Shown here: in pieces, positions 977 to 37,531 of the stretch | How the letters are laid out: the number at the start of each line of letters is the position of its first letter | How positions within the stretch are numbered: position 1 is the stretch's first letter | Source of the DNA: Clostridia bacterium | Lineage (GTDB): Bacteria > Bacillota > Clostridia > Christensenellales > Aristaeellaceae | Reading direction: 5' to 3' | DNA: 40,000 nucleotides | Assembly (NCBI GenBank): GCA_045599485.1 | Contig: JAZRWA010000097.1 | Location: 19,240 to 59,239 of the forward strand | Notes under the pieces: generated by a model | Seen by the model: only the letters and a program-made list of their open reading frames with translations | Databases searched by the model: none | What the model was told of the DNA's origin: nothing | Made by a program: the position numbers and the translations under genes

Positions 977-1807
977 ATGAAGAAGTACGAAATATTCTTT
1001 ATTGATCTGGACAATACTCTTGTGCCGCATGGCCGCCATGAAACAAGCGAGAGGAACATACGTGCTCTGAAGGCTGCCCGGGAAAAGGGAATACGCCTGT
1101 GTGTGGCAACAGGAAGATGCCTGGGACTGATGCCGCCGGCGGTTAGAGAAGTTGGCTTTGACTACGCTCTGACGGCGAACGGCTGCGCCATGTATGAACT
1201 GAAAACCGGCAAATGCGTGCTCCGGCAGAATTTCGGCAGAGAGATCGCAATAAAGGCTTATGAGATCGTAAGGCCGTAGCTTGAATTTTTTGAGCTGTTT
1301 GCGAACGGCGAAATCATGGTGGACCGCATGGAGGTTGAAAAGATCAGCCGCATGCCGCTGCCGCAAACGCATGTGGACTACTTCAGCCGTGGGAAAGGCG
1401 TGTTCAATCTTTCCTTTGAAGAATATATCCATTCCGGCGCTCCGGGGTTGGAAAAGTTCAACTGCATTGTAACACCCGAGAAAGCCATGAAAAAGCTGAT
1501 GCCTGCCCTGAAAGAAACAGGATTGTATGAGATCACGGCAATTGAGAAAAAAGGTGTACTGGAAGTGTTACCGGCCGGCTGTACAAAGGGCCAGATGATC
1601 CGTGATTTTTGCAGCTTGATGGGCGTCCGTACCGAAGATTGTGCCGCTTTCGGCGATGGTGATAACGATATCGACATGCTGCAGACGGTTGGCATGGGCG
1701 TTGCGATGGGCGGCGCGGGAGAGAATGTGAAAGCCATTGCCGACAGGGTGACCGATGGTGTTGAAAACGACGGACTGGCGGCATTTATTGAGAAAGAGAT
1801 ATTATGA
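977..1807 (+). CDS. Cof-type HAD-IIB phosphatase with one in-frame TAG at 1277-1279
   Basis: ORFs 977..1279 and 1316..1807 share a frame and are separated only by the TAG. N-terminal DxD motif (FFIDLDNTL) and C-terminal GDGDNDIDML motif. The joined length of 276 aa is normal for Cof proteins. TGA stop. Confidence 0.8.
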
Positions 1808-1814
1808 GGGAAGT

Positions 1815-2717
1815 ATGATACCTGAAGCTTTGAAACAGATGCTTGCGCGTCAATATGGCGAAGAGCAAGCCGGGCGAATCCTGGAAGGGATGAAGGGACC
1901 GAGGTGTGTGACGCTTCGTGCCAATACACTCAAGAGCACAGCGGAAGAAGTTGCCGCGGTGCTGACGGAAGCGGGGATTGCCTTTGAGAAGGCAACTTTC
2001 AGTGAAGAAGCCTTCATCCTGCCGGAAGCGTCCGAAAAAGATATTTGGCTGCTTGACATGTACAAGGAAGGCAAGGTTTATCTGCAAAGCCTTTCTTCCA
2101 TGCTGCCGGTGATGGCACTGAATCCCAAAGAAAACACGGATATTTTGGACATGGCGGCTGCGCCCGGCGGAAAGACCGCACAGATTGCCGCCATGACGCA
2201 CAATCAGGCCGGGATCATGGCTTGCGAGATCAATAAGATCCGGGCGGAAAAACTGAAGTATAACGTGGAAAAACAAGGCGCGACACGCGTGAATGTGATG
2301 GTACGGGATGCCCGACAGCTGGAGGATTTTTTCCGCTTTGATCAGATTCTGCTGGATGCTCCCTGCAGCGGCAGCGGTACGGTATTGGAGAGCGATCCCG
2401 GCAGCTGCAAAGCTTTTTCGGAAAAATTGGTCAAAAACAGCGCGCGTACCCAGCTTGAAATGCTGAAAAAAGCCATCAAAATTTTGAAAACAGGTCAGAC
2501 GATGGTCTATTCAACCTGTTCCATTCTGGCGGAAGAAAATGAGCGGAATGTAAAAAGCATTCTGTCAGAGAAGCAATGCATCGTCGACCCGATCACGCTT
2601 CCCGGCATGGAGCATTTGCCTCTTCTGCCGTGCGGAATTGAAGGAGCGCTGTGTATTGCACCAAACGCTCTGTATGAAGGATTCTTTATGTGCAGGCTGA
2701 AAAAGACAGGACGTTGA
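1815..2717 (+). CDS. RsmB/RsmF (NOL1/NOP2/Sun) family RNA m5C methyltransferase
   Basis: GAGGGAAG RBS precedes the ATG at 1815. Motifs AAAPGGKT, LLDAPCSGSGT and YSTCS. TGA stop. Confidence 0.8.
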   Translation: MIPEALKQMLARQYGEEQAGRILEGMKGPRCVTLRANTLKSTAEEVAAVLTEAGIAFEKATFSEEAFILPEASEKDIWLLDMYKEGKVYLQSLSSMLPVMALNPKENTDILDMAAAPGGKTAQIAAMTHNQAGIMACEINKIRAEKLKYNVEKQGATRVNVMVRDARQLEDFFRFDQILLDAPCSGSGTVLESDPGSCKAFSEKLVKNSARTQLEMLKKAIKILKTGQTMVYSTCSILAEENERNVKSILSEKQCIVDPITLPGMEHLPLLPCGIEGALCIAPNALYEGFFMCRLKKTGR

Positions 2718-2746
2718 ATTTCTCCTGTATTTTTGAGTAAAAGTGC

Positions 2747-2774
2747 TTGTCTGCAAAAATAGATACGGTATAAT
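2747..2774 (+). promoter_or_regulatory. Sigma-A type promoter for the decarboxylase gene
   Basis: TTGTCT (2747-2752), 16-nt spacer, TATAAT (2769-2774), about 30 nt upstream of the ATG at 2807. Confidence 0.4.
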
Positions 2775-2806
2775 ATACTGGATTATGAGCAAAGGAATGC
2801 GCTTAC

Positions 2807-4042
2807 ATGCCGAATTTTACTTTGAACGACGCTGTGTTTGAAAACGCCGCCAAACAGTATCCGACACCGTTTTATCTTTATGATGAAAAAGGAATATTGG
2901 ACAACATTGCCCGGGTGAAGCAGGCGTTTGCCTGGGCACCGGGGTATATGGAGTATTTTGCGGTCAAAGCGTTGCCCAACCCGCAGATTTTGAAGCTGTT
3001 TGTGGAAAACGGCTATGGGCTGGATTGTGCCTCTGAATGCGAGCTGATGCTTGCGGAAAAAGCTGGCGCGCAGGGAAAGATCATGTTTAGCGCCAATGAT
3101 GTGCCGAACGGCGAGTTCGCCATGGCACAAAAGATGGGAGCGATCCTTAATCTGGATGATATCACCGATATTGAACAGATGGCGGAAGAATGCGGCATAC
3201 CCGAGATGATCAGCATCCGCTTTAACCCGGGCGGCGATTTTTCCGGTCAGAATGCCATCATCGGACAGCCAGCGGAAAGTAAATATGGCTGGACAAAGGC
3301 ACAGATGATGGAAGGTCTGAAGAAACTGAAGCAGATGGGCTTGAAGCGCTTTGGCATCCATGCGCTGCTTTCCAGCAATTCTTTGGAACAGGGGTACTAT
3401 CCCGCATTGGCGGAGCTGTTGATGCGTACGGCTGCGGACTGCAGTGCCGAGTCGGGTGTGGAACTGGCCTTTGTCAATCTGTCGGGCGGCGTGGGTATTC
3501 CGTATCGTCCGGAGCAGAAGAAGCTGGATATCATGGAGATCGGCGCGCAGGTACGGAAGGCATATGAAGCTGTCTTTGGCGATCCGTCCGTGGCAAAAGT
3601 GCGCATCTGCAGCGAAATGGGGCGTTTTATGACGGGCCCCTACGGCTGGCTGGTGACCAAAGCCATTCATGAAAAGCAGATCTATCGTCATTATATCGGC
3701 GTGGATGCCTGCTCTGCCAATTTGCCTCGTCCGGCGATTTACGGTGCCTATCATCATGTTTCTGTGGTGGGCAAGAGGGAAATGCCCGAAACAGAGATCT
3801 ATGACGTTGTGGGCTCTCTTTGCGAGAACAGCGATAAATTTGCCGTGCAGCGTTCCATGCCAAAGGTGGAGATGGGCGATCTGCTGCTCATTCATGACGC
3901 CGGGGCGCATTGCTGGGCCATGGGACACAACTACAACGGACGGCTCTCCTGCGCTGAGATCCTGTATGAAAGGGATGGCGGATATCGCATGATTCGCCGA
4001 GCGCAAAAACCGGAAGATTACTTTGCAACGCTGGTCGATTGA
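2807..4042 (+). CDS. PLP-dependent Orn/DAP/Arg decarboxylase family protein (LysA-like)
   Basis: 411 aa. N-terminal YPTPFYLYDE, a PLP-lysine context (FAVKALPNP), and C-terminal CENSD and HDAGAH motifs typical of the fold-III decarboxylase family. TGA stop. Confidence 0.75.
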   Translation: MPNFTLNDAVFENAAKQYPTPFYLYDEKGILDNIARVKQAFAWAPGYMEYFAVKALPNPQILKLFVENGYGLDCASECELMLAEKAGAQGKIMFSANDVPNGEFAMAQKMGAILNLDDITDIEQMAEECGIPEMISIRFNPGGDFSGQNAIIGQPAESKYGWTKAQMMEGLKKLKQMGLKRFGIHALLSSNSLEQGYYPALAELLMRTAADCSAESGVELAFVNLSGGVGIPYRPEQKKLDIMEIGAQVRKAYEAVFGDPSVAKVRICSEMGRFMTGPYGWLVTKAIHEKQIYRHYIGVDACSANLPRPAIYGAYHHVSVVGKREMPETEIYDVVGSLCENSDKFAVQRSMPKVEMGDLLLIHDAGAHCWAMGHNYNGRLSCAEILYERDGGYRMIRRAQKPEDYFATLVD

Positions 4043-4046
4043 TCAT

Positions 4047-4079
4047 CAAAAAAGCAGGCCCGAAACGGCCTGCTTTTCA
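4047..4079. terminator. Bidirectional rho-independent terminator between convergent genes
   Basis: GCAGGCC (4054-4060) pairs with GGCCTGC (4067-4073). An A-run lies upstream and TTTTC downstream. Confidence 0.6.
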
Positions 4080-4101
4080 ATTGGCGAATTACAATGGAGG
4101 T

Positions 4102-5039: not shown

Positions 5040-5756
5040 TTACTTCGAGAACTCGTACATGCCAATGGCTGCGGCGACCGAAAGATTCAGAGAGTCGATC
5101 TGGTCGTTGTGGATGATACGAACCGGTTGGCCGACTGCAGCCATCTCGGAGGGCAAGCCGCTGCCCTCGTTGCCCATGATAAGGGAAAAAGGCGTATGCT
5201 TCGCTGCGGCGGCCTGTTGAATGGGGACAGAGGCGTCCAGCATGAAGGGATAGCAGGCATGCTCCGGGTATTGCGCGGCGTATTGCTCGAAGGTATCATA
5301 CAGACACACACGAAGTCCGAAAACAGCACCCATGCTGGCGCGGATGACATGCGGATCGAACAAGTCTGCGGCGGGGCGGATAATGGCAATATCGGTATAG
5401 CCAAAGCCAAGTGCTGTGCGGAGCATGGTTCCCATGTTGCCTTTATCGCTGGGATGGTGCAGCACAAGGTGATTGCCGTTTGAAAGAACGGAACTGAACT
5501 TGTCAAAGACAACGGCTGCAAAGCAATTCTCTTTTCCTGAAATGCGGCTGAGCGCTTTGTCTGCAGCTTCTTCCCGAACGTGATATTCTTCGCATAAACG
5601 TCTCAAAGCTGCAAGACCTTCACTGTTTTCCGCTTTGGAGGAGACGAGCAGGCGGCGTGCCAGCTCGGGACGCTTGAGCATCAGCTGGGAGGCGGGGAAA
5701 AGTCCGAGGGCATAGCTGTAGGAAAGGCGGGCGGAATAAGGTTCAAGGGATGGCAT
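5040..5756 (-). CDS. TrmH/SpoU family RNA 2'-O-methyltransferase
   Basis: SpoU motifs (LHHPSDKGNMGTMLRTA, IMGNEGSGL, SLNLSVAAAIGMYE). The ATG at 5756 overlaps the helicase TGA (TGATG). TAA stop. Confidence 0.8.
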   Translation of the reverse strand: MPSLEPYSARLSYSYALGLFPASQLMLKRPELARRLLVSSKAENSEGLAALRRLCEEYHVREEAADKALSRISGKENCFAAVVFDKFSSVLSNGNHLVLHHPSDKGNMGTMLRTALGFGYTDIAIIRPAADLFDPHVIRASMGAVFGLRVCLYDTFEQYAAQYPEHACYPFMLDASVPIQQAAAAKHTPFSLIMGNEGSGLPSEMAAVGQPVRIIHNDQIDSLNLSVAAAIGMYEFSK

Positions 5757-8026
5757 CAGCACACCTCCGATGTGGTAAGCATATGTTCAAGTAGCTGGAG
5801 AGCGATCTTTTTTCCTGCAGGACCGATTTCGGCCACCGGACCGGTACAGCCCGGGCAGCCATCTTCACAATCGCATCCCAGCACGACAGTTTTGCAATGT
5901 GCCAATAAAACTTCGCGCATTTTGTAGGCTTTTTCCGCCAGACCAATGCCGCCGGGGCAGGTATCGTACAAAATGATGGTGGACTTTTCCGTAAACGGAC
6001 ACTTGACCTGATAGCTGACCGAAATATCGCGCGGGGAGCACATCAGATACAGCGGAGACACGATTCGAAGCAGATTGGCAATGCCCAACATACCGCCCTG
6101 AAGTGAATCCTTGTCGTAGCGCGCAGCAACGGCAGGATCGAGCGTCCACCAGACGGCATTGGTGTGCATTTCGCTCTCGGGAAGCCGTACAGGACCGTAA
6201 CCAAGGTTTTCGCCTGTATCCAGCTTCATTTTTTTGAAAAGCTTGGTGATGGCGGTAACGCTGATATCACCCCAGGCGGCGCTTCCGCACTGCTCGGTGA
6301 TATCGAGCAGAGAAAGGCTCACATTGAGGTCTGCATCGGTATAATAATCCACCTCAATACGGCGTACAAAGGCTTTGCAGGCGTTGAAATCCAGCTTTTC
6401 CACTTGGTATTGCAGACCTTCGTGCATGTAAATGGCATTTTCGTGAAGCAGCATGGGCACGGTGAAACGATCCATTTCGCCAATGACGCGCACATGTGTG
6501 GGATCGGTAATGTCATTGATCAGGAAGTTTTCCGCCATGGCGGTACGAAGGGAGATCTCGCTGGCGGGGAATTCTTCGGCCTGCCAGAACCATGTATCGT
6601 CCACACGACGAAGGATATCCGATTCTTCCAAAAAGCCCAGCATTTCGTCATATCCCGGAGCGGAGCCAAAGGTTTCGTTCTGCTTGAAGGGCAGCTCATA
6701 AGCGGAGCATTTGAAATGATTGAGCAGAACATAAAGGTTATCGGGGTTGAGAAGGGCATTTTCCGGACTTTGTGAGAAGAAATACTGCGGATGAGCGACG
6801 ATGTATTGATCCAGGGAGGCGGAGGAGGCGACCAGTACGGTAAGACTCGTATCCTTGCGGCGACCGGCTCGTCCGGCTTCCTGCCAGGTGGCGGCGATGG
6901 TTCCCGGATAGCCGCACAGAACACAAGCCTGAAGGCTTCCGATATCCACACCAAGCTACAACGCGTTGGTGGAGATGACGGTACGAATCTCGCCCTTTCG
7001 CAGACCTGCCTCGATCTGATGGCGTTCACTGGGCAGATATCCGCCACGATAACCGCGAACGGTATCGGCAACGCCGAGGCTGTTGCGTGCACCGTCCTTG
7101 AGCCGACGGGTGAGCACCTCAACCTGTACGCGTGATTTGGCAAACACGATCGTAGAAATGCCGTTTTTCTGCAGGATACCGGCAATGCGGCAGGTTTCGT
7201 TCAAAACACTTTTTCGGATGCCCAGCTGACGATTGACGACGGGCGGATTGTAGAAAACAAAGTGTTTTTCGCCGCTTGGCGCGCCATTATTGTTGATGAC
7301 GGTGACGGGACGCCCAATCAGCATTTCCGCCAGTTCCTGCGGGTTGGCAATGGTGGCGGAGCAAAGGATGAAGCGCGGATGACTTCCGTAAAACTCACAA
7401 AGACGCAGCAAACGACGCAGAACGTTGGCCAGATTGCTGCCGAATACACCGCGATAGGAATGAATTTCATCAATGACGATGTAACGAAGGTTTTCAAATA
7501 GCTTGACCCAGCGGGTGTGATGCGGCAAAATGCCGGAATGAAGCATATCGGGATTGGTGACGACTACGTGCCCGGCTTGGCGGATCGCCCTGCGGGCGGT
7601 ATCGGGCGTATCACCGTCGTAGGTATAGGCTTTGATATCCGCCCCGAGAAGCTGGATCAGATCGTAAAGCTCACTGACCTGGTCCGCAGACAGGGCCTTG
7701 GTGGGGAAAAGATACAGGGCACGGGCATCGGGGTCGCGCATGATCTCGGACAAGATCGGCAGATTATAACAAAGTGTCTTGCCGGAGGCGGTGGGGGTGA
7801 CAACGACGAAGTCTTTTCCCTGCGCGGCGGCGGTTACGGCCTCGGCCTGATGGGTGTAAAGCTTGTGAACGCCTCTTTGGTTCAGCGCAACGGGAATGCG
7901 CTCATTGAGACAAGCAGGCCATTCGGCATAGCGGGCAGGAGAGGCCGGGTCGGTATGCCAATGGGTGACGCAGCTCATGAAGGATTCATCCTGCCTGAGT
8001 ACGTCCAGAAGCTGATCGATATTCAT
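5756..8026 (-). CDS. DEAD/DEAH-box helicase with C-terminal DUF1998 (YprA/MrfA-like), one in-frame TAG at 6956-6958
   Basis: ORFs 6956..8026 and 5756..6949 share a frame. Walker A (TPTASGKT), DEIH box and QEAGRAGRR are present. The C-terminal Cys cluster (CDCEDGCPGC) is typical of DUF1998. The junction reads TNAL-TAG-LGVDIGSL. The joined length of 756 aa is family-typical. Confidence 0.85.
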
Positions 8027-10029: not shown

Positions 10030-12306
10030 TTAATCATCCAGCTTGACGATGGGGGCGATGGAAAGAGAAAATTGCTTTTCACCGAATACAGGAAAATCAA
10101 TGCTTATGCGGGCAGAAGGACCTTCGCCGCTGATCTTGCGAACAATGCCTTTGCCGAATTTTCTGTGAAGGACATGATCACCGACGGAAAAAGCCTGGGT
10201 GAAGGCAGGAGAGGGGACTGGGGAAGAGAAACCGCGCTGTACGCCGGGGATGCCGAGCGGGTTGGCAGCTTTTGCGGGAACAGCGTTTCTGCCGGCAGGG
10301 CTGGTGAATGAATTGCCCGGTTTTGCGGGAGCAATGCCTTTGTTGACAGGAATGCGGCGGGGCTGTATCATCCCGTATATAAACGGGGAGGCAAAGCCGC
10401 TGCGTTCCTCCTACAGTAGCTTTGCGGGAATCTGCTCGATGAAGCAGGAGCGTGCGTTGAACTGAAGCTGATTGAACATCATGCGGCGCCGGGCATAGGA
10501 CAGATGAAGCTTTTTGCGTGCGCGGGTCACGCCGACATAACAAAGACGGCGTTCCTCCTATAACCCTTCAGGCTCAGCCATGGCCCGCGAGGAGGGGAAA
10601 ATGCCTTCCTCCATGCCGGGCATGAAAACGGTATCAAACTCCAGACCTTTGGCAGAATGCAGCGTCATCAGGGTTACATATGCGGGAGCATCCTCCTGCG
10701 CGTCCAGATCCGTGATGAGGGAGACGCTTTCCAAAAAAGCCGCAAGCGTTTTGATACTCTCCTTTTGTTCAAACTCGGTTACAGCTCCCATGAATTCACG
10801 GATGTTTTCAACGCGGGTCTGATCTTCTTCCTCATCGCTGTTGGCGTACTGAAGGAGAAGACCGCTGTCATCGATCACTTTCTGAACAAACTTGGAGAGC
10901 GGCATGATGTCTTTTTGCAGCATCAGCCCGATCATCAGTTCTGAAAATGCGGAAAGGCTCTTCTTGGCTTTGGCGCCGAGTGTGGATGGAGGCGTGAGCA
11001 CAGCGGCATAGAGGGACATTCCCTTGTCCGCCGCGTAGGTGGAAAGCTGGTCGATGGTGGCATCGCCGATGCTGCGCTTGGGCACATTGATGATACGATT
11101 GAGCGAAAAGTTGTCTGCGGGGTTTTCCAGAAAACGAAGATAGGCGACAATGTCGCGGATTTCCTTACGGTCATAGAATCGAGTACCACCGAAAACACGG
11201 TACGGGATACCGTTGGTCATGAAGGTCTCTTCCAGCACACGGGACTGGGCATGGATGCGGTAAAGGACTGCGGTCTTGCCAAGCTCCGATGTGGAGAAGG
11301 CCTTGATCTTATTTGCGATCCAGCGGGCCTCAACGCGTTCATCCTCGGCAGAGTAGAGGGTGATCTTCTCTCCGTCGGCACTGTCCGTCCACAGGCGTTT
11401 TTCTTTCCGCCCAAAGTTATGTTTGATGATATCGTTCGCCGCGGCGAGAATGTTGCCGGTTGAGCGGTAGTTTTGTTCCAACTTGATGACTTTCGCGTCG
11501 GGATAATCCTTTTCAAAGTTGAGAATATTGCGGATGTCGGCGCCGCGCCATGCGTAAATGGACTGGTCGTCATCGCCGACAACACAAAGGTTGCGGCTGT
11601 CTTGCGTCAGAAGACGGATGATATGGTATTGGGCAAAGTTGGTGTCCTGATATTCATCCACATGGACGTACCGGAATTGCTGCTGATAGTAACTGAGAAT
11701 GGGCGGATGATCAATGAAAAGCTGCAATGTCTTGAACAAAAGATCGTCAAAGTCCAAAGCGTTGGCGGCTTTCAGATGAGCCTCATATGCCACGATGACA
11801 TCGTGAATGCGTTGGGTTCGATAAGTTTTATCTGCATGAGCCAGCCATTCATCGGCATTCCAGACATGGTTTTTCATGTCGGAAATGTAGGCCGAGACCT
11901 CTTTGGGAGGGAGAAATTTTTCGTCAATGTCCAGTTCCTTGAGAACAGCTTTGATGACGCGAAGCTGATCATCCTGATCATAAATGGAGAAGGAACGGCT
12001 GTATCCGAGTTTTTCGATATCACGGCGAAGGATACGGCAGCAAATGGAATGGAAGGTACCGATCCATGTGCTGTCCAGTGATTTTCCGGTCAGCGTTTCG
12101 ATGCGCCTGCGCATTTCACGGGCAGCCTTGTTGGTAAAGGTGAGAGCAAGAATATGATAAATGCTTACACCATGCTCCAGCAGGTTGGCGATGCGATAAG
12201 TGATGGTGCGCGTTTTTCCGCTGCCGGCACCGGCCAGAATGAGGACAGGGCCATTGAGCTGTTCGGCGGCCTGTTTTTGCATGGGGTTCAGGTCATTGAG
12301 ATTCAT
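10030..12306 (-). CDS. pcrA: ATP-dependent DNA helicase PcrA (UvrD family), two in-frame TAGs at 10558-10560 and 10411-10413
   Basis: The N-terminus MNLNDLNPMQ...AGAGSGKT starts at the ATG at 12306. ORF 10558..12387 ends at a TAG inside motif VI (EGL-TAG-EERRLCYVGVTRA). The same frame continues through a second TAG (IPAKLL-TAG-EE) into ORF 10030..10371, which encodes the PcrA C-terminal tail (GDHVLHRKFGKG). The joined length is 758 aa. TAA stop. Confidence 0.9.
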
Positions 12307-12420: not shown

Positions 12421-12496
12421 TGGCACCTCCTGCCGGATTCGAACCGGCGTTTCAGCCTTGAGAGGGCCGCGTCCTAGGCCTCTAGACAAAGGAGGC
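12421..12496 (-). tRNA. tRNA-Glu (anticodon CUC)
   Basis: Hand-folded cloverleaf from GCCTCCTTTGTCTAGAGGCCTAGGACGCGGCCCTCTCAAGGCTGAAACGCCGGTTCGAATCCGGCAGGAGGTGCCA. It has a Glu-type D-arm (GTCTAGAGGCCTAGGAC), anticodon loop CTCTCAA, a 4-nt variable loop, T-loop GGTTCGAATCC and an encoded CCA. G1 pairs with U72 as a wobble. Confidence 0.85.
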
Positions 12497-12499
12497 AAA

Positions 12500-12573
12500 T
12501 GGCTGGGGAACAAGGATTTGAACCTTGACAGTACGAGTCAGAGTCGTAAGTGCTGCCGTTACACCATTCCCCA
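12500..12573 (-). tRNA. tRNA-Gln (anticodon CUG)
   Basis: Cloverleaf from TGGGGAATGGTGTAACGGCAGCACTTACGACTCTGACTCGTACTGTCAAGGTTCAAATCCTTGTTCCCCAGCCA. It has the U1-A72 pair, G73 discriminator, anticodon loop CTCTGAC and an encoded CCA. Confidence 0.85.
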
Positions 12574-12605
12574 ACACGGTTGTGCAGCTCGTAACTGCAA
12601 GAATT

Positions 12606-12634
12606 ATTATACGCGTGGGGAGTGTATTTGTCAA
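12606..12634 (-). promoter_or_regulatory. Consensus sigma-A promoter driving tRNA-Gln/tRNA-Glu
   Basis: The minus strand reads TTGACA (12634-12629), a 17-nt spacer and TATAAT (12611-12606), about 30 nt upstream of the tRNA-Gln 5' end. Confidence 0.6.
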
Positions 12635-12728
12635 CCCCCAAAATGCATTTTTTTGAAGAATAATCAAAAGATTGATCCGGAATAGGAAAACGGGGAAGGT
12701 AATGAGATGAATGGACGGAAGAGGATCG

Positions 12729-16930: not shown

Positions 16931-18273
16931 TCGTCCTTCTCCTTTGTTTTTTCACGCAGGGCGAAGCGAATCGGAGTGCCGCTGAAGCCGAAGGCCTTGC
17001 GCAGCTGATTCTCAAGATAACGTTCGTAAGCGAAGTGCATCAGATTTTCATCATTGACAAACAGGGCAAATACAGGCGGACAGGTTGCGATCTGTGTGCC
17101 GTAATAGATGCGCAGACGGCGACCGCCGCTGACAGGGGGCTGAAGCGCGATCTGAGCGTCGCCTAAAATATCATTCAGAAGGCCGGTGGGAATGCGCTTG
17201 CTGGCCTGAGCCCATACCTGATCGACATTTTCCAGCACGGTATGAACGCGCTGACCGGTCAGCGCGGAGATGGACAGCACGGGGGCATAATCCATGAACT
17301 TGAGGTCCTCCAGCACCTGCTTGCGGTATTTTTCCAGTGTGCCGGTATCCTTTTCGGGAATATCCCACTTGTTGACGATAACGACAACGGCTTTGCCTTC
17401 CTCACTGATGAGGCCGGCAATGCGGGCATCCTGCTCGGTTACTCCGTCCTGAGCGTCCAATACAAGCAGTGCGACATCACAGCGCTTGATGGCGGCAATG
17501 GCACGGATGACGCTGTAATGCTCCAGCGATTCATCCTCAATGGCTCTTTTGCGGCGGATGCCGGCGGTGTCGATGATGTTATAGCGGCTACCGTCGGCAC
17601 TTTCAAAATGTGTATCGATGGCATCGCGGGTAGTGCCGGGGATGTCACTGACCATCACACGATCCTGACCGAGAAGACGGTTGGTCAGACTGGATTTGCC
17701 GACGTTGGGGCGGCCGACCAGCGCCAACTGGATCTCGTGAAGATCGTTGTCTTCTTCGTCGTCTTCAGCCTCCGGCGGAAGATGATTGACGATCTCCTCC
17801 AGCAGGTCACCAAGCCCAAGCATGTTGGCGGCGGAGATGCCGATGGGATCGCCGAGACCAAGGGCGTAATACTCATACAGCACGTCCTTCATGCCATAAT
17901 GGTCCAATTTATTGACGACAAGCAGCACGGGCTTGCGGGTACGGCGCAGCATGGAAGCCACTTCTTCGTCGTCGCCGGTCAGTCCCTGACGGGCATCACA
18001 GAAGAAGCAGATCACATCAGCCATTTCAATGGCCAGCTCAGCCTGATGACGCATCTGAGAAAGCAGAGCATCATCGCTGCGGGGATCGATACCACCGGTA
18101 TCGATCAGCGTAAAAGCACGACCGGTCCATTCCACATCCGCGTAGATGCGGTCGCGGGTCACACCGGGCGTGTCCTTGACGATGGCGACACGATGACCGG
18201 CAATTTTGTTAAAGAAAGTGGATTTGCCCACATTGGGACGGCCGACGATGGCGACCAAAGGTTTAGCTTTCAT
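16927..18273 (-). CDS. der: Ribosome-associated GTPase Der (EngA)
   Basis: 448 aa with tandem G domains (GRPNVGKST twice, DTGG/DTAG, NKLD/NKWD) and a C-terminal KH-like domain. Confidence 0.95.
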   Translation of the reverse strand: MKAKPLVAIVGRPNVGKSTFFNKIAGHRVAIVKDTPGVTRDRIYADVEWTGRAFTLIDTGGIDPRSDDALLSQMRHQAELAIEMADVICFFCDARQGLTGDDEEVASMLRRTRKPVLLVVNKLDHYGMKDVLYEYYALGLGDPIGISAANMLGLGDLLEEIVNHLPPEAEDDEEDNDLHEIQLALVGRPNVGKSSLTNRLLGQDRVMVSDIPGTTRDAIDTHFESADGSRYNIIDTAGIRRKRAIEDESLEHYSVIRAIAAIKRCDVALLVLDAQDGVTEQDARIAGLISEEGKAVVVIVNKWDIPEKDTGTLEKYRKQVLEDLKFMDYAPVLSISALTGQRVHTVLENVDQVWAQASKRIPTGLLNDILGDAQIALQPPVSGGRRLRIYYGTQIATCPPVFALFVNDENLMHFAYERYLENQLRKAFGFSGTPIRFALREKTKEKDE

Positions 18274-19601
18274 GGATGCTCCTGTTCTGTATTGCCAAGC
18301 AGCGCGGTATAAAGACCGGCGCCGCTGTTGGGTACGATTCGGACGGGGAAGGGAAGACGGGCACGGAAGGTTTCAAGCGGCAGATCGTCCAGGAACAGAT
18401 CGCCTGCTTCGCGCAGAGTCACGCTGCACAGCAGCATTTCATCCACGTCCTGCGAGGCTGTCTGCTCGGAAATGTCGCCGCCGCACAGAAGACCGGTAAC
18501 GGTAACAGTGGTGCCGAAAAAATGATTATCGATCGCCTGTACGGTAATATCGACACCTTCGGGCCCATACTCACGGAGCCAGCGGCGCATATAAGGCGCG
18601 ATACTGGTGCCGCAGGGGATCAGTATACGGCGGGGGCGTGCGGTCTCGCCGCTGTGGGCGGCTCGTGCTTCCAAAAAACCGGTGAGGAACTGCCGCATCA
18701 GACCGACTCCGTTTTCAATCTGCGGAAAGTTTTCGTAGTACTCTTCATCCGGAAGATCCCTTCCGGCGATGCAAAGCATTTCATCTGAGGGGAAAACAAA
18801 GCGGGTGCCGAGTTTTTCCAGAAAACGATTCTGCCATTTTTCGCAGATGGCCAGAACCTCTTGTGCCTGCTCGCGCGTGTAGGGCTTCAGCGGGTAAAGC
18901 TTTTCACGGCATTTGGTCAGTCCAACAGGCACGAGTGCGGCACTTTGCGCTGCGGGGATGAGATGAGACAATGTTTCAAGTGTTTCTTCCAGAACAGCGC
19001 CGTCGTTGATGCCGGGGCACAGCACGATCTGGCAATGGAAATGCGTGCCGTTTTCCTTGAGCCTTTCAAGACGCGGAAGCAATTGCGCGGCATCAGGATT
19101 ACGCAGCATCCGGGCGCGGACCTACGGGTTGGTGGCATGTACGGAAATGAAAAGAGGCGAGGCGTGACGCTTGAGGATGCGTTCAAATTCACGATCATCG
19201 ACGTTGGTAAGGGTGATGAAGTTGCCCATCATCAGGGACATGCGCCAGTCATCGTCTTTTACGTACAATGACTTGCGGCAGGCGCGCGGCATCTGGTCAA
19301 TAAAGCAGAAGATGCAGTGGTTTTTGCATATGCGGGGAGTAATGGTCATGCTGTCCCCGAAGGAGAGCCCGAGCGGTTTTTCGGGCTGTTTGACAAGCTC
19401 GACATTCCAATCGCGGCCATCTGCTTTGCGCACATGCAGAATGATGTGCCGGCGGGCAGACAGTGCTTCATAATCGACGGAGTCGATCAGATCTTCACCG
19501 TTGAGGGTGAGAAGGGTATCTCCTGCACGCAGACCGCCGCGCCATGCCGGGGAACCGGGACGAACGAAAGTAATCAGATGTTCCAACGCATACTCCTCCA
19601 T
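18270..19601 (-). CDS. DUF512 protein (PDZ + radical-SAM-like domain), one in-frame TAG at 19122-19124
   Basis: ORFs 19122..19601 and 18270..19109 share a frame. PDZ-like N-terminus (GSPAWRGGLRAGDTLLTLNG) and Cys motif CKNHCIFC. The junction reads SVHATNP-TAG-VRARMLRN. The joined length is 443 aa. The position upstream of der-plsY is conserved in Firmicutes. An alternative TTG start lies 15 nt downstream of the ATG at 19601. Confidence 0.8.
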
Positions 19602-20907: not shown

Positions 20908-20910
20908 TGA

Positions 20911-24278: not shown

Positions 24279-24629
24279 TTATTTTCCTCCTTTATGATTT
24301 GAAAGATCTTTGAAATTGAATTCCTTTTTTGCCTGGTTGATTTCTTTGTTCAAACCGCCAAGACTCTTGTTGATCTCTTCAATGGGCTGAGTCAGCTATT
24401 TGCCAAGATCGGTACCGTCTTCAGACGTTTTGATGTCTTTCTGAATGTCGTTGAGCTCATCAGTCAGCTCATCAAGGCCGGTTTCCTTTTTGATCTCCTA
24501 TAGCATGGCTTTGGCCTTTTTGACAAAGCGACCGAGCGCGCGCGCGACTTTTGGCAGGTCCTTCGGGCCGACTACGATGAATGCAATCAGCAGGATGAGG
24601 ACCAGTTCCGAGGCGCCAATACTCGTCAC
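24279..24629 (-). CDS. Second TatA/TatB-family protein, invisible to the ORF track because of two in-frame TAGs (24498-24500, 24396-24398)
   Basis: GTG at 24629 is preceded by GGGAGGTGAGGAG. The translation is (M)TSIGASELVLILLIAFIVVGPKDLPKVARALGRFVKKAKAML-TAG-EIKKETGLDELTDELNDIQKDIKTSEDGTDLGK-TAG-LTQPIEEINKSLGGLNKEINQAKKEF.. It ends at TAA (24279-24281), 2 nt before the tatA ATG. The (F)GxxELxxIxxxALxxFGPxKLP signature of the Tat family is present. Confidence 0.7.
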
Positions 24630-24712: not shown

Positions 24713-25765
24713 TTAACCCTTTACTGCAAAAGCGTAGATGGTTTGACTGCGATAGAGATCGCCTTTTTTGAGAATGACGGAAGGAAAACCGGGATGATGG
24801 ATCGCGTCGGGATGATGCTGCGTTTCGAGAGCAATGCCAGCATAGGGCCCATAATGCGCATGACCGGCGGCATTGCTGATGTCAAAATGCTGACCGGTGT
24901 AGACCTGGACGGCAGGTTCGGTCGAGAGCAGATGCATCACACGTCCGCTGTCAGGGCAGGACAAAGCACCAAAGAGCCGCAAGCCTTCGCCCTCGATGGG
25001 AAAATTGAAGTCATAGCCGTGCCGGAGCACCATGATCGGCAGCTACGCACTGCGGCGCAGACCTTCACCAATGTTCAGCGGGGTACGGAAATCCACCGGC
25101 AGACCGTCGACGGAAAAATGGCGGCCTGTGGGGATCAGATCATCGTCCGTCTCTGTCATGGTAGCTGCGTTGAGCTGCAGCGAGTGATTCAGAATATCGC
25201 TGCCGCTGCCAAGATTGAAATAGCTGTGGTTGGTCAGATTGATAATGGTATCGGCGTCGGAAACGGCGCTGTAGCAAATGCAAAGCTCGTTACGGTCGGT
25301 CCATGCGTAAGTGATCTCCACATGCAGATTGCCGGGAAAGCCTTCCTCACCATCGGGACTGTCATAGGACAGAACCAACAGGTCAGCCTCAACGCCTTCC
25401 TGAATGGAAGCGTTGAACCAACGGTGTTCAAAACCCTGAAGTCCGCCGTGCAATGTGTTGCCGTGATCATTGGCGGCAAGATGGTAATGTGTGCCGTTCA
25501 GATCGAAAGCGGCACCGCCGATACGGTTGCCCACGCGGCCGATGGCAGCACCGAGATAACAGCCATCCTCGGTGGCGTAACCGGAGACATCGTCAAAGCC
25601 AAGGCAGACATTGCCGAGCCGGTCATTGCGGTCAGGTACCTTGACGGATACCACGTGCGCGCCGTAATCACAGACAGAAAGGGAAGCGCCGGAGGCATTG
25701 GTGAGGGTATAGAGTCGGGCTTCCCTATGATCAAGGAAACCGAAAGAAGAAACGGTAATGCTCAT
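24713..25765 (-). CDS. galM: Aldose 1-epimerase (galactose mutarotase), one in-frame TAG at 25043-25045
   Basis: ORFs 25043..25846 and 24713..25033 share a frame. AAGGAG RBS precedes the ATG at 25765. Family motifs GRVGNRI, NDHGNTLHGG, GYDFNF and GIALETQHHPDA. The joined length is 350 aa. TAA stop. Confidence 0.85.
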
Positions 25766-27621: not shown

Positions 27622-28626
27622 TTACTTGGTCGTATAGGGGTTGATCACAACAAGCACATCACGGTTGACGGCCTGCTCGACCCAATGGGAAAAATCACCG
27701 TAAAGGGTTTCATCGGCACCTTCAAAGCCGGCGTCCAGCGCGGCCCGCAGCAGCTTTTGCCTGGAAAGCGTATAGGTGTTGAAGGAAATGGCGGCGGCAC
27801 AGCCGGGCCGCAATGCTTCCCGCCAGGCAGGCAATGCCCGGGCCAGCAGCTGCTACAGGGTGCCGATGCCTTTTCCATGAGATGGGGCATGCTGTACGCC
27901 ATAGGGCAGATCGGCAATGAGCAGGTCGGCCCGCGTTTTTTTGGTCAGCAGACCGGTCATGGCGGTATCCGCACGGATGAAACTGATGGATTGGGCAAAG
28001 GGCGGTTTCAGAGTATAGCACTCTGTCGGGGCGTTTTTACCCTGAGGCAGCGTCATTGAAAGGCGCTGCTCGGCATAGCCGAGCTTGTTATATTGAAAGA
28101 AGCGTTTGGTAAACTGGGCGCCTTCGGTCAGAGCAGTATCATCGCAGTCGATGCCGATGGCATCCATGCCGTTTTCCAATGCACAGAATAGCCCGGTGCC
28201 GTGTCCGCAGATGGGGTCAAGCAACCGCTTGTGCGGCTCAAAAGGATGGGAGCTGCAGCTCAGAGCCAGATTGATCAGCAGGCGTGTAAAATCGGAATTG
28301 GTTTTTCCCTTGTATTTGAGTACATCGGGCATGCCGGAAGGAAAGGCGGAGGTGAAGGGAAGATCGAGCGGTTGCAGTAACCCATCCTCCTGCAGAAGAC
28401 ACAGCATATACAGTTCCGAGTGGCGGCATAGAAAAGAAAGCTTTTCGATATCCAACTCGTCCGTGTCAAAGCACAAAAATGGCGCGCCGCCAAGGGATAA
28501 AGAAAGAACATCGGCTTTCACACCACAGGCATGCAGCATACAGCGCAGTTCTTTCACGGAGAGCGTCAGCAGGGATTCCTGATAACGCGCGTTTGAATGA
28601 GCGCGCAATTGAAAAGCGTATCGCAT
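27622..28626 (-). CDS. Class I SAM-dependent N-methyltransferase (UPF0020/RlmL-like, motif IV DLPYG), one in-frame TAG at 27853-27855
   Basis: ORFs 27853..28629 and 27622..27834 share a frame. Motif I (LLDPICGHGTG) and motif IV (LIADLPYG). The junction reads GKGIGTL-TAG-QLLARALPAW. AAAGGAG RBS precedes the ATG at 28626. Confidence 0.7.
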
Positions 28627-28816: not shown

Positions 28817-28965
28817 AACTCTGGTGAAAGACGAAAAAAGTTAGCGGCGCAAGGATCGAAAGGTCAAATGAGATATAGCCGTGAAGGTGCTCGTGAACGT
28901 TTTTCGGGTATCGTCAGGAAGAGCGGCAGCGGCGTATGAGACAAGGTATTCAAGGAGGAAACAAC

Positions 28966-29430
28966 ATGAAAAAGGCGTTTGTTTTGATACTTGTACTGAT
29001 GATGATTCTGTCTGTCGGGGGCGCGACGGGAGAAACGGTGATGCTGGGCAGCACCGGGTTTAGTCTGAACCTGAATGGACTGTCCTTTTCCAAGCCGAAC
29101 GGAGCAGATGCCCCTGATGATGCAGTATTGATGTTCGGCAATGCGGATGGGACAATGCGCGGTGTGGTTTATGAATACGCCTCCGAAGGGCTGACCCTCA
29201 AAAATCTGGAAAATGAGGTGCTTGCGAAAGCCGAAGGTGTGACGGCCACCGGTTACACTGAGATCAACGGAGTGGAGTGCTTCTGGGTGGTGATGGACGA
29301 CTTCGGCGATAACTTTATCGTCTACTACACCATTGAGGGAAACAAAATGGTAAAGTTTGAATTCTATTATAAAGGCGCTGAGGCTGCGAGCCTGACCGGA
29401 ACGATTATGGACACACTTCATCGGAATTGA
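28966..29430 (+). CDS. Small secreted protein of unknown function
   Basis: AAGGAGG RBS and ATG at 28966. Signal peptide MKKAFVLILVLMMILSVGGATG. 154 aa. I recognise no family. Confidence 0.55.
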   Translation: MKKAFVLILVLMMILSVGGATGETVMLGSTGFSLNLNGLSFSKPNGADAPDDAVLMFGNADGTMRGVVYEYASEGLTLKNLENEVLAKAEGVTATGYTEINGVECFWVVMDDFGDNFIVYYTIEGNKMVKFEFYYKGAEAASLTGTIMDTLHRN

Positions 29431-29516: not shown

Positions 29517-29724
29517 ACAGAGGATGCTCCTGGGATGTACGCCAGCGTTTTGTTTTTACCCACATCTCTTAAAACGGAGCCCGGGTCGGACATGGACGTC
29601 ATGCCCCCGTGCCGCAAGGCATGCCAGGGGAAGGCGGTAAGTGAGCCGCAGGGCACCGGCCTGCTGTTTACATAGCGGGTGAAAAAACCAAGCGCAGCGG
29701 CATCATCGGGACTCCTCTTTTTTT
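29517..29724 (+). ncRNA. ssrS: Probable 6S RNA (SsrS), about 205 nt
   Basis: A stand-alone transcription unit between convergent or unrelated genes. The 5' end (AGAGGAUGCUCCUGGGAUGUACGCCAGCG) and 3' end (GCGCAGCGGCAUCAUCGGGACUCCUCU + U7) can form an interrupted closing stem. Both ends resemble my recollection of the E. coli and B. subtilis 6S termini (..CUGAGAUGU.. / ..CGGCAUC..GGA..). Size is appropriate. No covariance-model check was possible. Confidence 0.55.
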
Positions 29725-29777: not shown

Positions 29778-30527
29778 TTAAAGAAAACGCTCCGGGTCAT
29801 AGTCGACCGCGGTCAGGCAAAGTCCGCGTGCCGGGGCGGTGGGCCCTGCAGCGGGACGGCTTTTTGCGGAGAGAATGCCTGACATGTTGTTGGCATCCAT
29901 ACGACCTGCACCGACCTAAAGCAGAGTGCCGGTCAGGATGCGGACCATGTTCATCAGGAAGCCATCACCGTGAAAGATGAGGCGAAGCCGGTCGTTATCC
30001 TGTTCGATGCGGATGGAATCCACCGTTCGAACTGTCGATTTATCGGAATGCAGATTGGTAAAGGAACGAAAATCGTGTTTTCCGATAAGCTGTGATGCGG
30101 CAAGGCGCATGGCATCAAGGTCAAGCGGAAGCGGCAGAGCATAAGCATATTTGCGGTCAAAAACAGGACGCGCATCACCGCAGTAGCAGGTGTAGGTATA
30201 GGTTTTGCCGGAAGCGTGAAAGCGGGCATGGAAGCGCTCGGGGACTGTGCGGACCGCAAGGACACAAATATCATCGGGAAGATAGCGGTTCATGTACTCC
30301 CGAATCTGTTCGACGGAGAGGGTTGTGTTCAGATGGGCGTTAGCGGTCATGGCAAGGGCATGAACACCGGCATCGGTGCGCCCCGCGCCGATCAATTGCA
30401 CAGGAGCGTCTGTCATGCGGGCAAGAACATTTTCCAATCGCCCCTGAATGGTATCTGTATCGGGCTTACGTTCCCAGCCGTGGTAACGTGTGCCGTCATA
30501 TTGAATGGTAAAAAGATAATTGGTCAT
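29778..30527 (-). CDS. truA: tRNA pseudouridine(38-40) synthase TruA, one in-frame TAG at 29916-29918
   Basis: ORF 29916..30527 has the catalytic GAGRTDAGVHA motif and ends at a TAG inside the conserved MVRILTGTLL-x-VG motif. The same frame continues (VGAGRMDANNMSGILSAKSRPAAGPTAPARGLCLTAVDY) to TAA at 29778-29780, recovering the conserved R..AG.TAPA.GL.L motif. The joined length is 249 aa. Confidence 0.9.
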
Positions 30528-33993: not shown

Positions 33994-33998
33994 GGCAA

Positions 33999-34445: not shown

Positions 34446-34460
34446 GGAAAAACTCCTTTG

Positions 34461-34979: not shown

Positions 34980-34983
34980 TTGA

Positions 34984-35955
34984 TTACCCCAGATTGGCGA
35001 GAATGTTGTTCATTTCCTGAATCATTTCGGTGTCTTTCAAGCGGAATTTGATCTCGACGCGGCGGGAAGCATCCTGATTTTCGGTTCCGTCTTCGTTGTA
35101 GATCAAATCCGATTCGCTTCGTCCTTGTGCGGTGATGACATTCTGCAGCTTCAGTTTCATGGCCGGCGAGAGGGAAGGCATGTTGAGGCAGTATTCAACG
35201 ACGTTCAAGGCACGGGACTGCGAAAGACGAAGGTTGGTCTGGTAGGAGCCGGTGGAATCCGTGTGCCCCTCGATGATGATCTCGGCCACATAATCGCTGT
35301 ATTGCTCACTGAGCAGTACGCTCAGATACACGGGTATGAGCCTTTCCAGTTCAGCTTGTCCTTCTTCTTTCAAATTGGAGCTGTTGGTCTGGAACATGAG
35401 GGAGGATTGCAGCATGATGTCGCCGGTGTTCGGGTCGACTGTGGCGCTGATTCTGGCGGCGGAAAGCGCGCCGCTCAATTCCTCAACGATGCGGGTTCGA
35501 ACGCCGAGCATGTTGGACAGGCGCAGTTTATAGCTTTCAAGCTCGTCCTGCTTGCTGTCCAGCTCGGATTCCTTGATGCTGATCTGTGCCAAGAGCAGCT
35601 GGTTTTCGCTTTCGCGTTCGCTGAGGGCGATCTGTGCCGCATAAAGATCCTGCTGCTGAGTATCAAGCTGAATCTGGATGGCGGCAAGCTCCTCTTCCTT
35701 GCCCTGCAGCGAAGTACGGGTGGTTTCGAGATCCTACTCCTGCTGAAGAAGAATCAGCTGCGCGGCATTCAGCTGTGCCTGCTGTTCATCCAGTTCACGC
35801 TGTCGGGTCTCATTCAATTGGTGATAGTTGTAAATGCAAAGCGTGATCGCCAAAATAAAGACGAGCAGCAGGGAAGCCATCATGTCCGAGTAGGAGATCC
35901 AATGCGTACCGGAGTCATGCGTGGAATGCCTGTGGGAGTGAACATTTCCGCTCAT
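34984..35955 (-). CDS. MotB/OmpA-family protein with a long coiled-coil linker, one in-frame TAG at 35734-35736
   Basis: ORFs 35734..36003 and 34984..35592 share a frame, with no other stop between them. AGGGAG RBS and ATG at 35955. It has the MotB-type N-terminal TM (WISYSDMMASLLLVFILA), about 110 aa of Q/E/L-rich coiled coil, and a C-terminal OmpA-like peptidoglycan-binding domain (IIIEGHTDSTG...NLRLSQSRA...NRRVEI). Confidence 0.8.
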
Positions 35956-35956
35956 G

Positions 35957-37531
35957 TCATGCTCCCTTCGGAGTGCCATTGAGGGCCCGGACGGTATTTT
36001 CAAGCTGATCGTTTATATCCTGAAGCATTCGCTGCAGACGGGAAAGGGCGGCAACACAGCCGTCTGCGGCGCCGTTGACGGAAGCAGTATCCGGACCGGT
36101 GTGCTTCAGACTGTTTACACGCGAATCAAGCAGGGAAAAGGCATTGTTCATGCTCGTTTCGAACTGTGAGAGGGAGCGGGTCATGGACACGCTGATGGTA
36201 TCGGCAAAAGAAGAACAGCTTTCCGACAGCAGTCTGCCGGATTCGCGCATTGCAAGGGCGGTTTTGTCGGTGGAGGCAGCAATGGTACCTGACTGGTTTT
36301 CAACCGCCTGCAGCACGCGCGCACTCCAATTGGCGTAGTCACGCATCTGATTTTCCAAAGCCTGCTGTTCGCCGCGCAGGGTGTGCAGAAAATCCTGCTG
36401 CTCCTGCAGCGCGCCATGCATGCTGCTAAGCACATTCTGCATGCCGCGGGTGAAATCTTCACCGTTGGTTTCACGCTGTGCGGCTTCAGCGGCGTACACT
36501 TCAAGACGCTGTGAAACACGCCCCATCATATCGCCCATGCGCTGCAGCGTATCGATGACGCCGGTTGCGGCACCCATCGTGGCATTCATGGCATCGCGAT
36601 CCACCTGACAATTGCGGTTGATGGCAGAAAGCGTTTGACCAAGCTGCCCGAACTGGCCACTGAGGGAAACGTTCATCGATTCGACAAACCGATGGACGAT
36701 GGTGTTGAGACCTTCCAGCTGATGCTGTGTTTCGCCGGAAATAAACTGATTGATGGACTGCGTGACAGGCAGCATATTGGTGTTGATGGCGTTGGCGACG
36801 CCTTCGTTGATGTGCTGTCCGATTTCGGTGACCGCATGGCGCAGGAATGCAGCACGATCTTCCTGCTGGCAGATCGCCTGTACGTTATCACTCAGGGGCT
36901 GCTGCATGACAAACTCAGTAAAGGCTTCGTGAAAATCATCGATGGCGTTCTGCGCAGAACCGATGGCGGCGTGGTTGAGGATGTTGAAAAGAATGGAGGT
37001 GATACAGCCGGCAATGGAAGTGCCAAAGGCAAAATTCATGCCGGAGATCATATCGGAAATGCCGTCGATGGTGTTGGCGGCGTTGCTTAAATCCAACGCG
37101 CCAAGCCCTCGGACCAGACCCATGAATGTGCCCAGAATGCCAAGGCTGGTCAGTATACCGGGAATGACTTCACCCAGCTGGGTGTGGCAATGGGCGTAAA
37201 TGACGGTATCATCATTGATATAATCCGCAACGTTGCAATTGATGCCGCGGCTGTCCAGCTGCTGTGCATTGACAAGAAAACGGCGCCAGCTGGTCTGAAG
37301 CGTATTGCCGAGAAATTTCGGCTCCTGCCAGACGGGTTGAGAAACAGATTTGATCGTCATGGATTCAAGCTGATGTACGGCTTTGTGAAGCAGCCTGCTG
37401 CAGCGCCTGGAGGCCATGATGCACTTGCCAAAGCCGATGACAAAAACAATTGCGATGGCGGCGTATACCAGCCAGTCGGTCAGCTGCCCGGAAAGAGAAG
37501 ATAGAATAGCGTCCATAGACGGTCCTCCCAT
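35957..37531 (-). CDS. MotA/TolQ/ExbB proton-channel family protein with a ~300-aa helical C-terminal tail
   Basis: AGGGAG RBS and ATG at 37531. TM core with family motifs (PGILTSLGILGTFMGL, AFGTSIAGCITSILFN). The residues after about aa 200 are a long Q/L/A/N-rich helical region. Its stop is 1 nt from the motB-like ATG. Confidence 0.75.
   Translation of the reverse strand: MGGPSMDAILSSLSGQLTDWLVYAAIAIVFVIGFGKCIMASRRCSRLLHKAVHQLESMTIKSVSQPVWQEPKFLGNTLQTSWRRFLVNAQQLDSRGINCNVADYINDDTVIYAHCHTQLGEVIPGILTSLGILGTFMGLVRGLGALDLSNAANTIDGISDMISGMNFAFGTSIAGCITSILFNILNHAAIGSAQNAIDDFHEAFTEFVMQQPLSDNVQAICQQEDRAAFLRHAVTEIGQHINEGVANAINTNMLPVTQSINQFISGETQHQLEGLNTIVHRFVESMNVSLSGQFGQLGQTLSAINRNCQVDRDAMNATMGAATGVIDTLQRMGDMMGRVSQRLEVYAAEAAQRETNGEDFTRGMQNVLSSMHGALQEQQDFLHTLRGEQQALENQMRDYANWSARVLQAVENQSGTIAASTDKTALAMRESGRLLSESCSSFADTISVSMTRSLSQFETSMNNAFSLLDSRVNSLKHTGPDTASVNGAADGCVAALSRLQRMLQDINDQLENTVRALNGTPKGA

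Follow-up and report, generated by a model that had tools for sequence, protein, structure and literature searches.

In-frame TAG codons in housekeeping genes point to UAG being read as glutamate in a narrow lineage of uncultured Clostridia

Can a natural bacterial chromosome give up UAG as a terminator and read it as an amino acid? The question is raised by a 40,000-nucleotide stretch of contig JAZRWA010000097.1 (positions 19,240 to 59,239, forward strand) from the Clostridia assembly GCA_045599485.1, hereafter the window, by which the whole of that stretch is meant. Inside conserved genes of the window stand in-frame TAG codons, and an earlier note made from the letters alone had proposed that TAG is a sense codon here and not a terminator. 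Having compared the window with two related strains and with homologues that keep the standard code, we consider it likely that UAG is no longer a terminator in this lineage and has become a rare sense codon, with glutamate as the most likely residue.

Open reading frames (ORFs) were re-derived in the window with only TAA and TGA as stops and TAG translated as X, and the products were subjected to a Pfam scan. Once TAG was not counted as a stop, each of the nine genes in question became one continuous frame, and the 11 in-frame TAGs that the earlier note had counted in them were all recovered in place and in frame, inside single ORFs delimited by TAA or TGA. They are listed below together with the domain that crosses each codon or with its state in two related strains, one taken from Logan run SRR27361835 (contigs of 32,826 and 22,246 bp) and the other from ENA assembly ERZ27247129 (four contigs).

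1277..1279, plus strand: TAG codon 101 of a Cof-type HAD hydrolase gene (977-1807); Hydrolase_3 (residues 7-271) runs across the TAG
6956..6958, minus strand: TAG codon 357 of an MrfA/YprA helicase gene (5756-8026); Helicase_C (285-390) runs across it
10558..10560, minus strand: TAG codon 583 of pcrA (10030-12306); UvrD_C (274-606) runs across it
10411..10413, minus strand: TAG codon 632 of pcrA; GAG in both related strains
19122..19124, minus strand: TAG codon 160 of a DUF512 radical-SAM-like gene (18270-19601); Radical_SAM_2 (71-220) runs across it
24498..24500, minus strand: TAG codon 44 of a TatB-like gene (24279-24629); TAG kept in the Logan strain
24396..24398, minus strand: TAG codon 78 of the same TatB-like gene (24279-24629); TAG kept in the Logan strain
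25043..25045, minus strand: TAG codon 241 of galM (24713-25765); Aldose_epim (18-344) runs across it
27853..27855, minus strand: TAG codon 258 of a putative methyltransferase gene (27622-28626); TAG kept in the Logan strain
29916..29918, minus strand: TAG codon 204 of truA (29778-30527); PseudoU_synth_1 (143-244) runs across it
35734..35736, minus strand: TAG codon 82 of a ZorB/MotB-like OmpA-domain gene (34984-35979); CAG in both related strains

Pfam domains thus bridge the TAG in six genes, in agreement with the earlier observation that family motifs continue across it; alignments to PDB homologues likewise extend over their full length past the TAG, and the reconstructed lengths were reproduced as well (PcrA 758, MrfA 756, DUF512 443, GalM 350 and TruA 249 residues). 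In the TatB-like gene, which is the second Tat gene of the region (24279-24629, minus strand), a GTG start with an GGAGGTGAGGAG ribosome-binding site seven bases ahead opens a frame that holds both TAGs, and the TatA_B_E domain lies upstream of codon 44; the Pfam scan of the putative methyltransferase gene (27622-28626) returned no match. Counted over the 12,479 codons of the window, the 11 TAGs amount to ~0.9 per 1000, close to the ~1 per 1000 estimated before, and to ~1.4% of the window's Glu codons if TAG is counted as Glu. The recoded chromosome region carries housekeeping genes, namely rho, ligA, pcrA, der, plsY, truA, tatC and that of 6S RNA.

The ends of the genes tell the complementary story. 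The stops of 36 annotated genes, with Pfam support where possible, were 17 TAA and 19 TGA and not one TAG, and the 37 coding sequences with 17 TAA and 20 TGA of the earlier tally are matched by adding a 101-residue ORF whose TGA ends at 22148. As TAG makes up ~13-24% of the stops in relatives, the probability of finding 0 of 36 lies between ~0.007 and 5e-5. Interruption by TAA, TGA or a frameshift was claimed to be absent, and indeed no in-frame TAA or TGA was found in any of the 36 annotated genes. Because GAA is commoner than GAG in the window (474 versus 279 codons), random G>T or nonsense hits on Glu codons would be expected to produce mostly TAA, and the observed 11 TAG against 0 TAA give p ~2e-5 against such hits. 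No shared extended nucleotide motif that would hint at methylation-linked consensus errors was found around the 11 TAGs.

In all, ~75 kb of clade DNA was examined, and the TAGs of the three strains (the NCBI window, Logan and ENA) were placed by homology-guided codon maps. Crude ORF statistics with TAG taken as sense were also tried on relatives and set aside as non-discriminating, since read-through of true TAG stops inflates the counts. One Logan contig is collinear with window positions 2743-33129 at 88% nucleotide identity, and codon by codon, the Logan strain matches eight of the nine alignable window TAGs and has GAG at the ninth. PcrA583 and DUF512 codon 160 are TAG in both related strains, and MrfA357 and galM codon 241 are TAG in the Logan strain. 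Eight different sequences, drawn from NCBI, Logan and ENA, cluster as a TruA fragment of exactly 203 residues and break off at the same residue, and TAG-split genes are present in every one of the independent assemblies (the NCBI contig, two Logan contigs and four ENA contigs). Between the window and its relative, the ratio of nonsynonymous to synonymous substitution rates (dN/dS) was 0.045 upstream of the TAGs (1796 codons), 0.060 downstream of them (1083 codons) and 0.045 in five control genes without TAG (2445 codons), with a synonymous rate (dS) of ~0.56 throughout all three comparisons; the putative methyltransferase gene gave 0.12 upstream and 0.18 downstream. The dN/dS after the TAG being about that before it, the downstream parts are translated and constrained, which excludes pseudogenes, split genes with loss of the distal part, and assembly error.

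The second Logan contig and its ENA counterpart reach past the window's right end, where further TAG-split genes were found, i.e. dnaB, a DUF4317 gene with two TAGs, a CapA/PGA_cap gene, an exonuclease III gene (ExoIII) and a FecCD permease gene. Four of the five TAGs in DUF4317, PGA_cap, ExoIII and FecCD are TAG in both the Logan and the ENA strain, dnaB lying outside the compared stretch. The DUF4317 gene ends ...SILP-TAG-TAA in the Logan strain (L117 10945-11280, minus strand) and ...SILP-GAG-TAA in the ENA strain (L118 2121-2462, minus strand), a TAG/GAG swap in the last sense codon, right before the real terminator. This TAG, directly followed by TAA, is the only one at a gene end in the related strains: all other TAG-terminated gene calls in that Logan contig are internal TAGs of longer frames, and not a single gene of the Logan strain truly terminates at TAG over ~51 kb, which contain ~21 sense TAGs. 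As to dnaB, which encodes the replicative helicase (Logan L117 7156-8514, plus strand), its TAG stands between the N-terminal domain and the linker helix; the gene starts past the window's end and is probably carried by the source contig.

An explanation by artefact or decay would hold that the TAGs are sequencing or consensus errors, or that the genes are pseudogenes or split genes in a degenerating genome. The public gene calls, made with table 11, do display these genes as fragments, just as the earlier note had foreseen for that table, but identical TAGs occur in independent assemblies at 12% nucleotide divergence, dN/dS after the TAG stays at 0.06, and TAG alone is affected, with neither in-frame TAA or TGA nor frameshifts, although GAA is commoner than GAG. 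The G>T consensus errors that the note had itself named as a possible refutation are ruled out by the TAGs common to independent assemblies together with this dN/dS, and its case against decay stands, the downstream parts being under purifying selection and the TAGs kept across strains. The artefact or decay reading of the TAG-split genes is effectively refuted, and we leave it a vanishingly small probability.

The recoding is common to the three independently sequenced strains, and homologues at 72-79% identity are intact with Glu or GAG. Full-length MrfA homologues of 70-79% identity are all intact under table 11, and outside the truncated cluster the nearest TruA (72% identity) is complete in length, with Glu where the window has TAG. 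In a near-outgroup locus (ENA ERZ27318554, MrfA 77% identical), pcrA, ligA, mrfA and spoU are intact, PcrA583 and MrfA357 are GAG, and two of 15 genes end in TAG. The closest species-representative genomes, with ~60% PcrA identity, are Clostridiales metagenome-assembled genomes (MAGs) and Candidatus Limiplasma, which have Glu at PcrA583. Exact copies of two clade proteins, one of them a TAG-truncated PBP fragment of 236 residues, also occur in NCBI assembly GCA_024500545.1. The intact homologues at 70-79% identity and the standard-code outgroup confine the recoding to a narrow lineage; this is a lineage of uncultured Clostridia near Christensenellales, presumably young, and the organism of the window is an uncultured Clostridia-type gut or digester bacterium. 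The proposal that TAG is sense and not a terminator is therefore upheld from within the clade, where TAGs are kept in relatives, dN/dS downstream is 0.06 and eight TruA variants end at codon 203, and from outside it, where the near outgroup keeps the genes intact, with GAG at PcrA583 and MrfA357, and still ends genes in TAG.

Which amino acid, then, is placed at TAG, a point on which the earlier note was silent? Judged from aligned homologues and strain comparison, glutamate is the most likely residue and glutamine a weaker rival. The column of MrfA357 is E in 120 of 120 homologues, with Glu also in B. subtilis YprA (PDB 6ZNP); that of TruA204 is E in 118 of 119, with Glu also in the E. coli and Thermus TruA structures; and that of PcrA583 is E in 79 of 80 homologous loci. 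DUF512 codon 160 falls in a column of E 51, D 29, A 21 and Q 9 among 149 homologues, and PcrA632 in a variable one where E and D are commonest. Summed over seven columns, Codetta-like log-odds (log10) were +6.1 for E, -4.3 for A and -4.7 for Q, four informative columns carrying the Glu call. In the three-strain comparison, the variable TAG sites exchange solely with GAG and CAG, at six sites each:

TAG/GAG sites: LigA639, PcrA632, HIGH_NTase82, NT5C60, RlmI181 and DUF4317-377
TAG/CAG sites: MrfA69, MrfA744, PepS11-237, MoeA241, g34461-119 and ZorB82

No exchange of TAG with AAG, TTG, TCG, TGG, TAY or TAA was found across the three strains. At five of the six TAG/CAG sites TAG is present in one strain of three, MrfA744 being comparable in two strains only.

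Some of the data weigh against the reading of UAG as Glu. In half of the TAG polymorphisms between strains the other codon is CAG (Gln), which alone would fit TAG as Gln, and most of the other TAG columns (HAD, GalM, ExoIII and FecCD) are variable in PDB alignments and uninformative on E versus Q; HAD codon 101, a site outside the related strains' contigs, falls in a variable column of PDB homologues, and galM codon 241 in a variable loop. The columns of MrfA 69 and 744, the CAG/TAG sites that were examined, are variable and accept E, and so speak neither for nor contrary to Glu. Neutral synonymous changes are 5-10 times as frequent as either GAG>TAG or CAG>TAG, which marks TAG as a disfavoured codon whose decoding may be inefficient or partly competed. 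A substitution-rate test of E versus Q was discarded as non-discriminating, both changes lying far under neutral. Finally, ARAGORN detected no tRNA(CUA) in the ~75 kb of clade sequence, only tRNA-Glu(CUC) and tRNA-Gln(CUG), and prfA, the RF1 gene, lies outside that sequence.

Glutamine could be inserted at TAG by a supE-like tRNA-Gln(CUA), or by near-cognate tRNA-Gln(CUG) through G36-U wobble, after loss of release factor 1 (RF1). In its favour, each of the six strain-level TAG/CAG polymorphisms takes one C>T step, and the window has a tRNA-Gln(CUG) gene. According to the introduction of the Codetta paper, Gln is the most frequent residue in amber reassignments elsewhere; it is also the assignment inferred for TAG-recoded phages (code 15), and several eukaryotes are known to read UAG as Gln. 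Against this, three TAG columns hold 99-100% Glu, with no Gln at all among 80-120 homologues per column, the TAGs in such Glu columns are the ones kept in all strains and GAG in the outgroup, and the log-odds favour E over Q by ~11 log10 units. A TAG synonymous with CAG should moreover turn over fast: by the analogous synonymous T>C step, the relative has CTG at 31% of the TTG codons, whereas it has CAG at 0 of 9 alignable window TAGs. The CAG pairs themselves are compatible with glutamate: Q/E replacements at standard codons are common between these strains (13 in 9,344 codons), so that Q-to-E through a C>T step is expected if TAG is Glu. Sense TAG as Gln is accordingly unlikely in our estimation. 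Pyrrolysine (Pyl), which some Firmicutes use and which recently described archaea insert at all TAG codons, would be the only UAG sense reading known in cellular prokaryotes so far as the consulted portion of the literature goes; yet the TAGs occupy invariant Glu positions and swap with GAG and CAG only, and no methylamine methyltransferase or pyl genes were found in the ~75 kb of clade sequence, so it is hardly credible here. A leaky natural amber suppressor with RF1 kept, leaving TAG ambiguous between stop and Glu or Gln, would suit a codon that is rare and apparently costly, GAG>TAG and CAG>TAG being far below neutral expectation, and a clade so young that an outgroup at 77% amino-acid identity still has TAG stops. 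It sits badly with the 0 of 36-37 window genes that end in TAG, likewise in the related strains unless TAA directly follows, and with mid-domain TAGs kept across strains in the essential pcrA and truA and a TAG in the essential dnaB of the Logan strain; such partial suppression we regard as quite improbable, more so than glutamine.

As for how UAG could have come to be read as glutamate, we infer that a dedicated tRNA(CUA) together with a lost or disabled RF1 would yield the observed pattern. The tRNA genes that bear on this mechanism lie in the window as follows.

12421..12573, minus strand: tRNA-Gln(CUG) and tRNA-Glu(CUC) pair upstream of pcrA, detected by ARAGORN and Rfam

The two genes are 3 nt apart and conserved in all three strains, and a near-consensus TTGACA...TATAAT promoter, judged by eye, stands ahead of them (12421-12700, minus strand); in the 22-kb outgroup locus L083 no tRNA was found. 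The suppressor itself is not encoded by this pair, whose genes are possible parents of one with anticodon CUA. An exact 27-mer of the tRNA-Glu(CUA) derivative had 0 matches in a metagenome collection, but the CUC control had 28 matches there, none of them from the clade, which the collection thus lacks, and the negative is uninformative for it. In the proposed mechanism, a tRNA with anticodon CUA would be charged with Glu; it would plausibly be a recent duplicate of tRNA-Glu(CUC), one C36-to-A step away. Discriminating glutamyl-tRNA synthetase (GluRS) reads C36 via a conserved arginine, and the non-discriminating GluRS of bacteria without glutaminyl-tRNA synthetase (GlnRS) also tolerates G36. 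By analogy, a GluRS of the non-discriminating type might accept A36, and the mechanism would call for such an enzyme with relaxed recognition of anticodon position 36. RF1 would be lost or disabled, leaving release factor 2 (RF2) to terminate at UAA and UGA only; ancestral TAG stops would have been replaced by TAA or TGA or backed by a following stop, and new TAGs would then have arisen from GAG, synonymously, and from CAG, as Q-to-E changes at tolerant sites.

Put together, these results lead us to favour, with fair though not strong confidence, a recent chromosome-wide change of UAG from stop to Glu in a natural bacterial lineage near Christensenellales/Clostridia, probably by tRNA-Glu(CUA) and RF1 loss. 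Bacteria would thereby have their first stop reassignment outside UGA and prokaryotes their first stop-to-Glu code, caught at an early stage with standard-code sisters ~20-25% diverged in protein sequence.

Several other features of the window were observed. All 11 sense TAGs are followed by G or C (e.g. at 1280, 6955 and 10557), where 0.63 would be expected after GAG codons and 0.585 at first codon positions overall (p ~0.003-0.006); at least one further TAG of a related strain (LigA639) is apparently followed by a Lys codon (A), as read from the window protein sequence, and the bias may for this reason be chance. In the ZorB/MotB-like gene, a transmembrane anchor is encoded 5' of the TAG and the OmpA domain 3' of it, the sense TAG falling in a coiled-coil insert. 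This gene, which had been described as a MotB/OmpA protein, and the 524-residue gene upstream (together 34984-37531, minus strand) were matched by PADLOC to ZorB1 (E 3.7e-70) and ZorA1 (E 1.7e-26) of the Zorya anti-phage system, and the orthologue is labelled ZorA-like_t1. No ZorC- or ZorD-like genes are evident beside the two window genes, which could represent a module of ZorAB alone or else a stator of the MotAB kind. A 6S/SsrS RNA gene lies at 29524-29716 (plus strand) between a small ORF (28936-29430) and truA, scoring 50.2 bits with Rfam RF00013 against a gathering threshold of 46.4. Long antisense 'mirror' ORFs cover real genes nearly end to end, such as 2783-4006 (minus strand) over 2807-4042 (plus strand) and 19816-20910 (plus strand) over 19708-20907 (minus strand); three that were tested (20-886, 37365-38087 and 39057-39767, all minus strand) had no Pfam match. 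They look like a by-product of codon composition, and would mislead naive ORF-based gene calling.

If UAG is indeed glutamate here, the lineage would provide the first report of a TAG reassignment across a bacterial chromosome; in the literature searched, the amber reassignments described are otherwise limited to phages, eukaryotic nuclei and the Pyl code of archaea. Such a code would extend the genetic code tables by that of a free-living bacterium reading UAG as Glu, would imply that RF1 loss is evolutionarily accessible in nature, and would offer a natural orthogonal-like pair of tRNA(CUA) and GluRS; being a young case with close standard-code relatives, it would also make the codon-capture and ambiguous-intermediate models directly testable. 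On the practical side, table-11 gene callers split essential genes of the clade, and the resulting fragments are already in public protein sets and distort MAG quality estimates and pseudogene counts. Phage-host compatibility may be altered too, as TAG-recoded phages circulate in similar habitats.

How the case compares with established codes can be judged against published surveys. According to the Codetta screen, UGA is the codon changed in every known bacterial reassignment; a 2026 preprint on translation-table prediction cites the UAG-to-Pyl change of some archaea as the only genome-wide prokaryotic one at UAG; and UGA is also taken as the bacterial case in a 2026 paper on UGA-to-Trp in Actinomycetota. 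Our literature search, which covered sources outside subscription journals, found no published genome-wide UAG reassignment in a bacterium, whether to Glu or to Gln, and no publication on the accessions; to that extent it agrees with the earlier note, which was aware of no established amber-to-sense reassignment across housekeeping genes in a free-living Firmicute.

The bacterial UGA codes, i.e. table 4 (UGA = Trp, Mycoplasmatales and others) and table 25 (UGA = Gly, Gracilibacteria and Absconditabacteria), are genome-wide stop-to-sense changes in which one release factor is lost and the reassigned codon is absent from gene ends, the latter as here; they hit UGA and RF2, whereas here UAG and presumably RF1 are concerned. 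The genome-wide UAG-to-Pyl code of archaea (Kivenson et al. 2025, as cited in the preprint on translation-table prediction) and the facultative Pyl of some Firmicutes share with our case a UAG that is sense in a cellular prokaryote and avoided as a terminator, but there the non-canonical Pyl enters via PylRS and tRNA-Pyl, while here TAG replaces canonical Glu at invariant positions. TAG-recoded phages (code 15; crAss-like, Lak and other jumbo phages) likewise use amber as sense in prokaryotic translation, have TAG-split genes under table 11 and are expected to rely on a suppressor tRNA(CUA), as would be the case here; in them, however, Gln is inferred and the change concerns the phage genome only, often its late genes, in contrast to a bacterial chromosome with Glu as the best-supported residue. 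Laboratory amber suppressors and RF1-deleted E. coli (supE, RFzero and C321.deltaA) combine a tRNA(CUA) with RF1 removal in a manner analogous to the mechanism proposed above, yet these are engineered strains or laboratory mutants that insert mostly Gln, Tyr, Ser or non-canonical residues, unlike a natural lineage whose TAGs are maintained by selection. In peritrich ciliates (NCBI table 30) and Blastocrithidia nonstop (UAR = Glu), a stop is reassigned to glutamate just as here, through a tRNA-Glu with a stop-complementary anticodon and an altered release-factor specificity, a mechanism of the kind that would operate in our lineage; those codes are eukaryotic and nuclear, take UAA and UAG together and involve eRF1, whereas here UAG alone is affected, 17 genes still terminate at UAA, and the release-factor system of the host is the bacterial RF1/RF2 one. 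The present code thus differs from the known stop-to-sense cases in its host domain, in the change of UAG alone and, with respect to the phages, in the residue.

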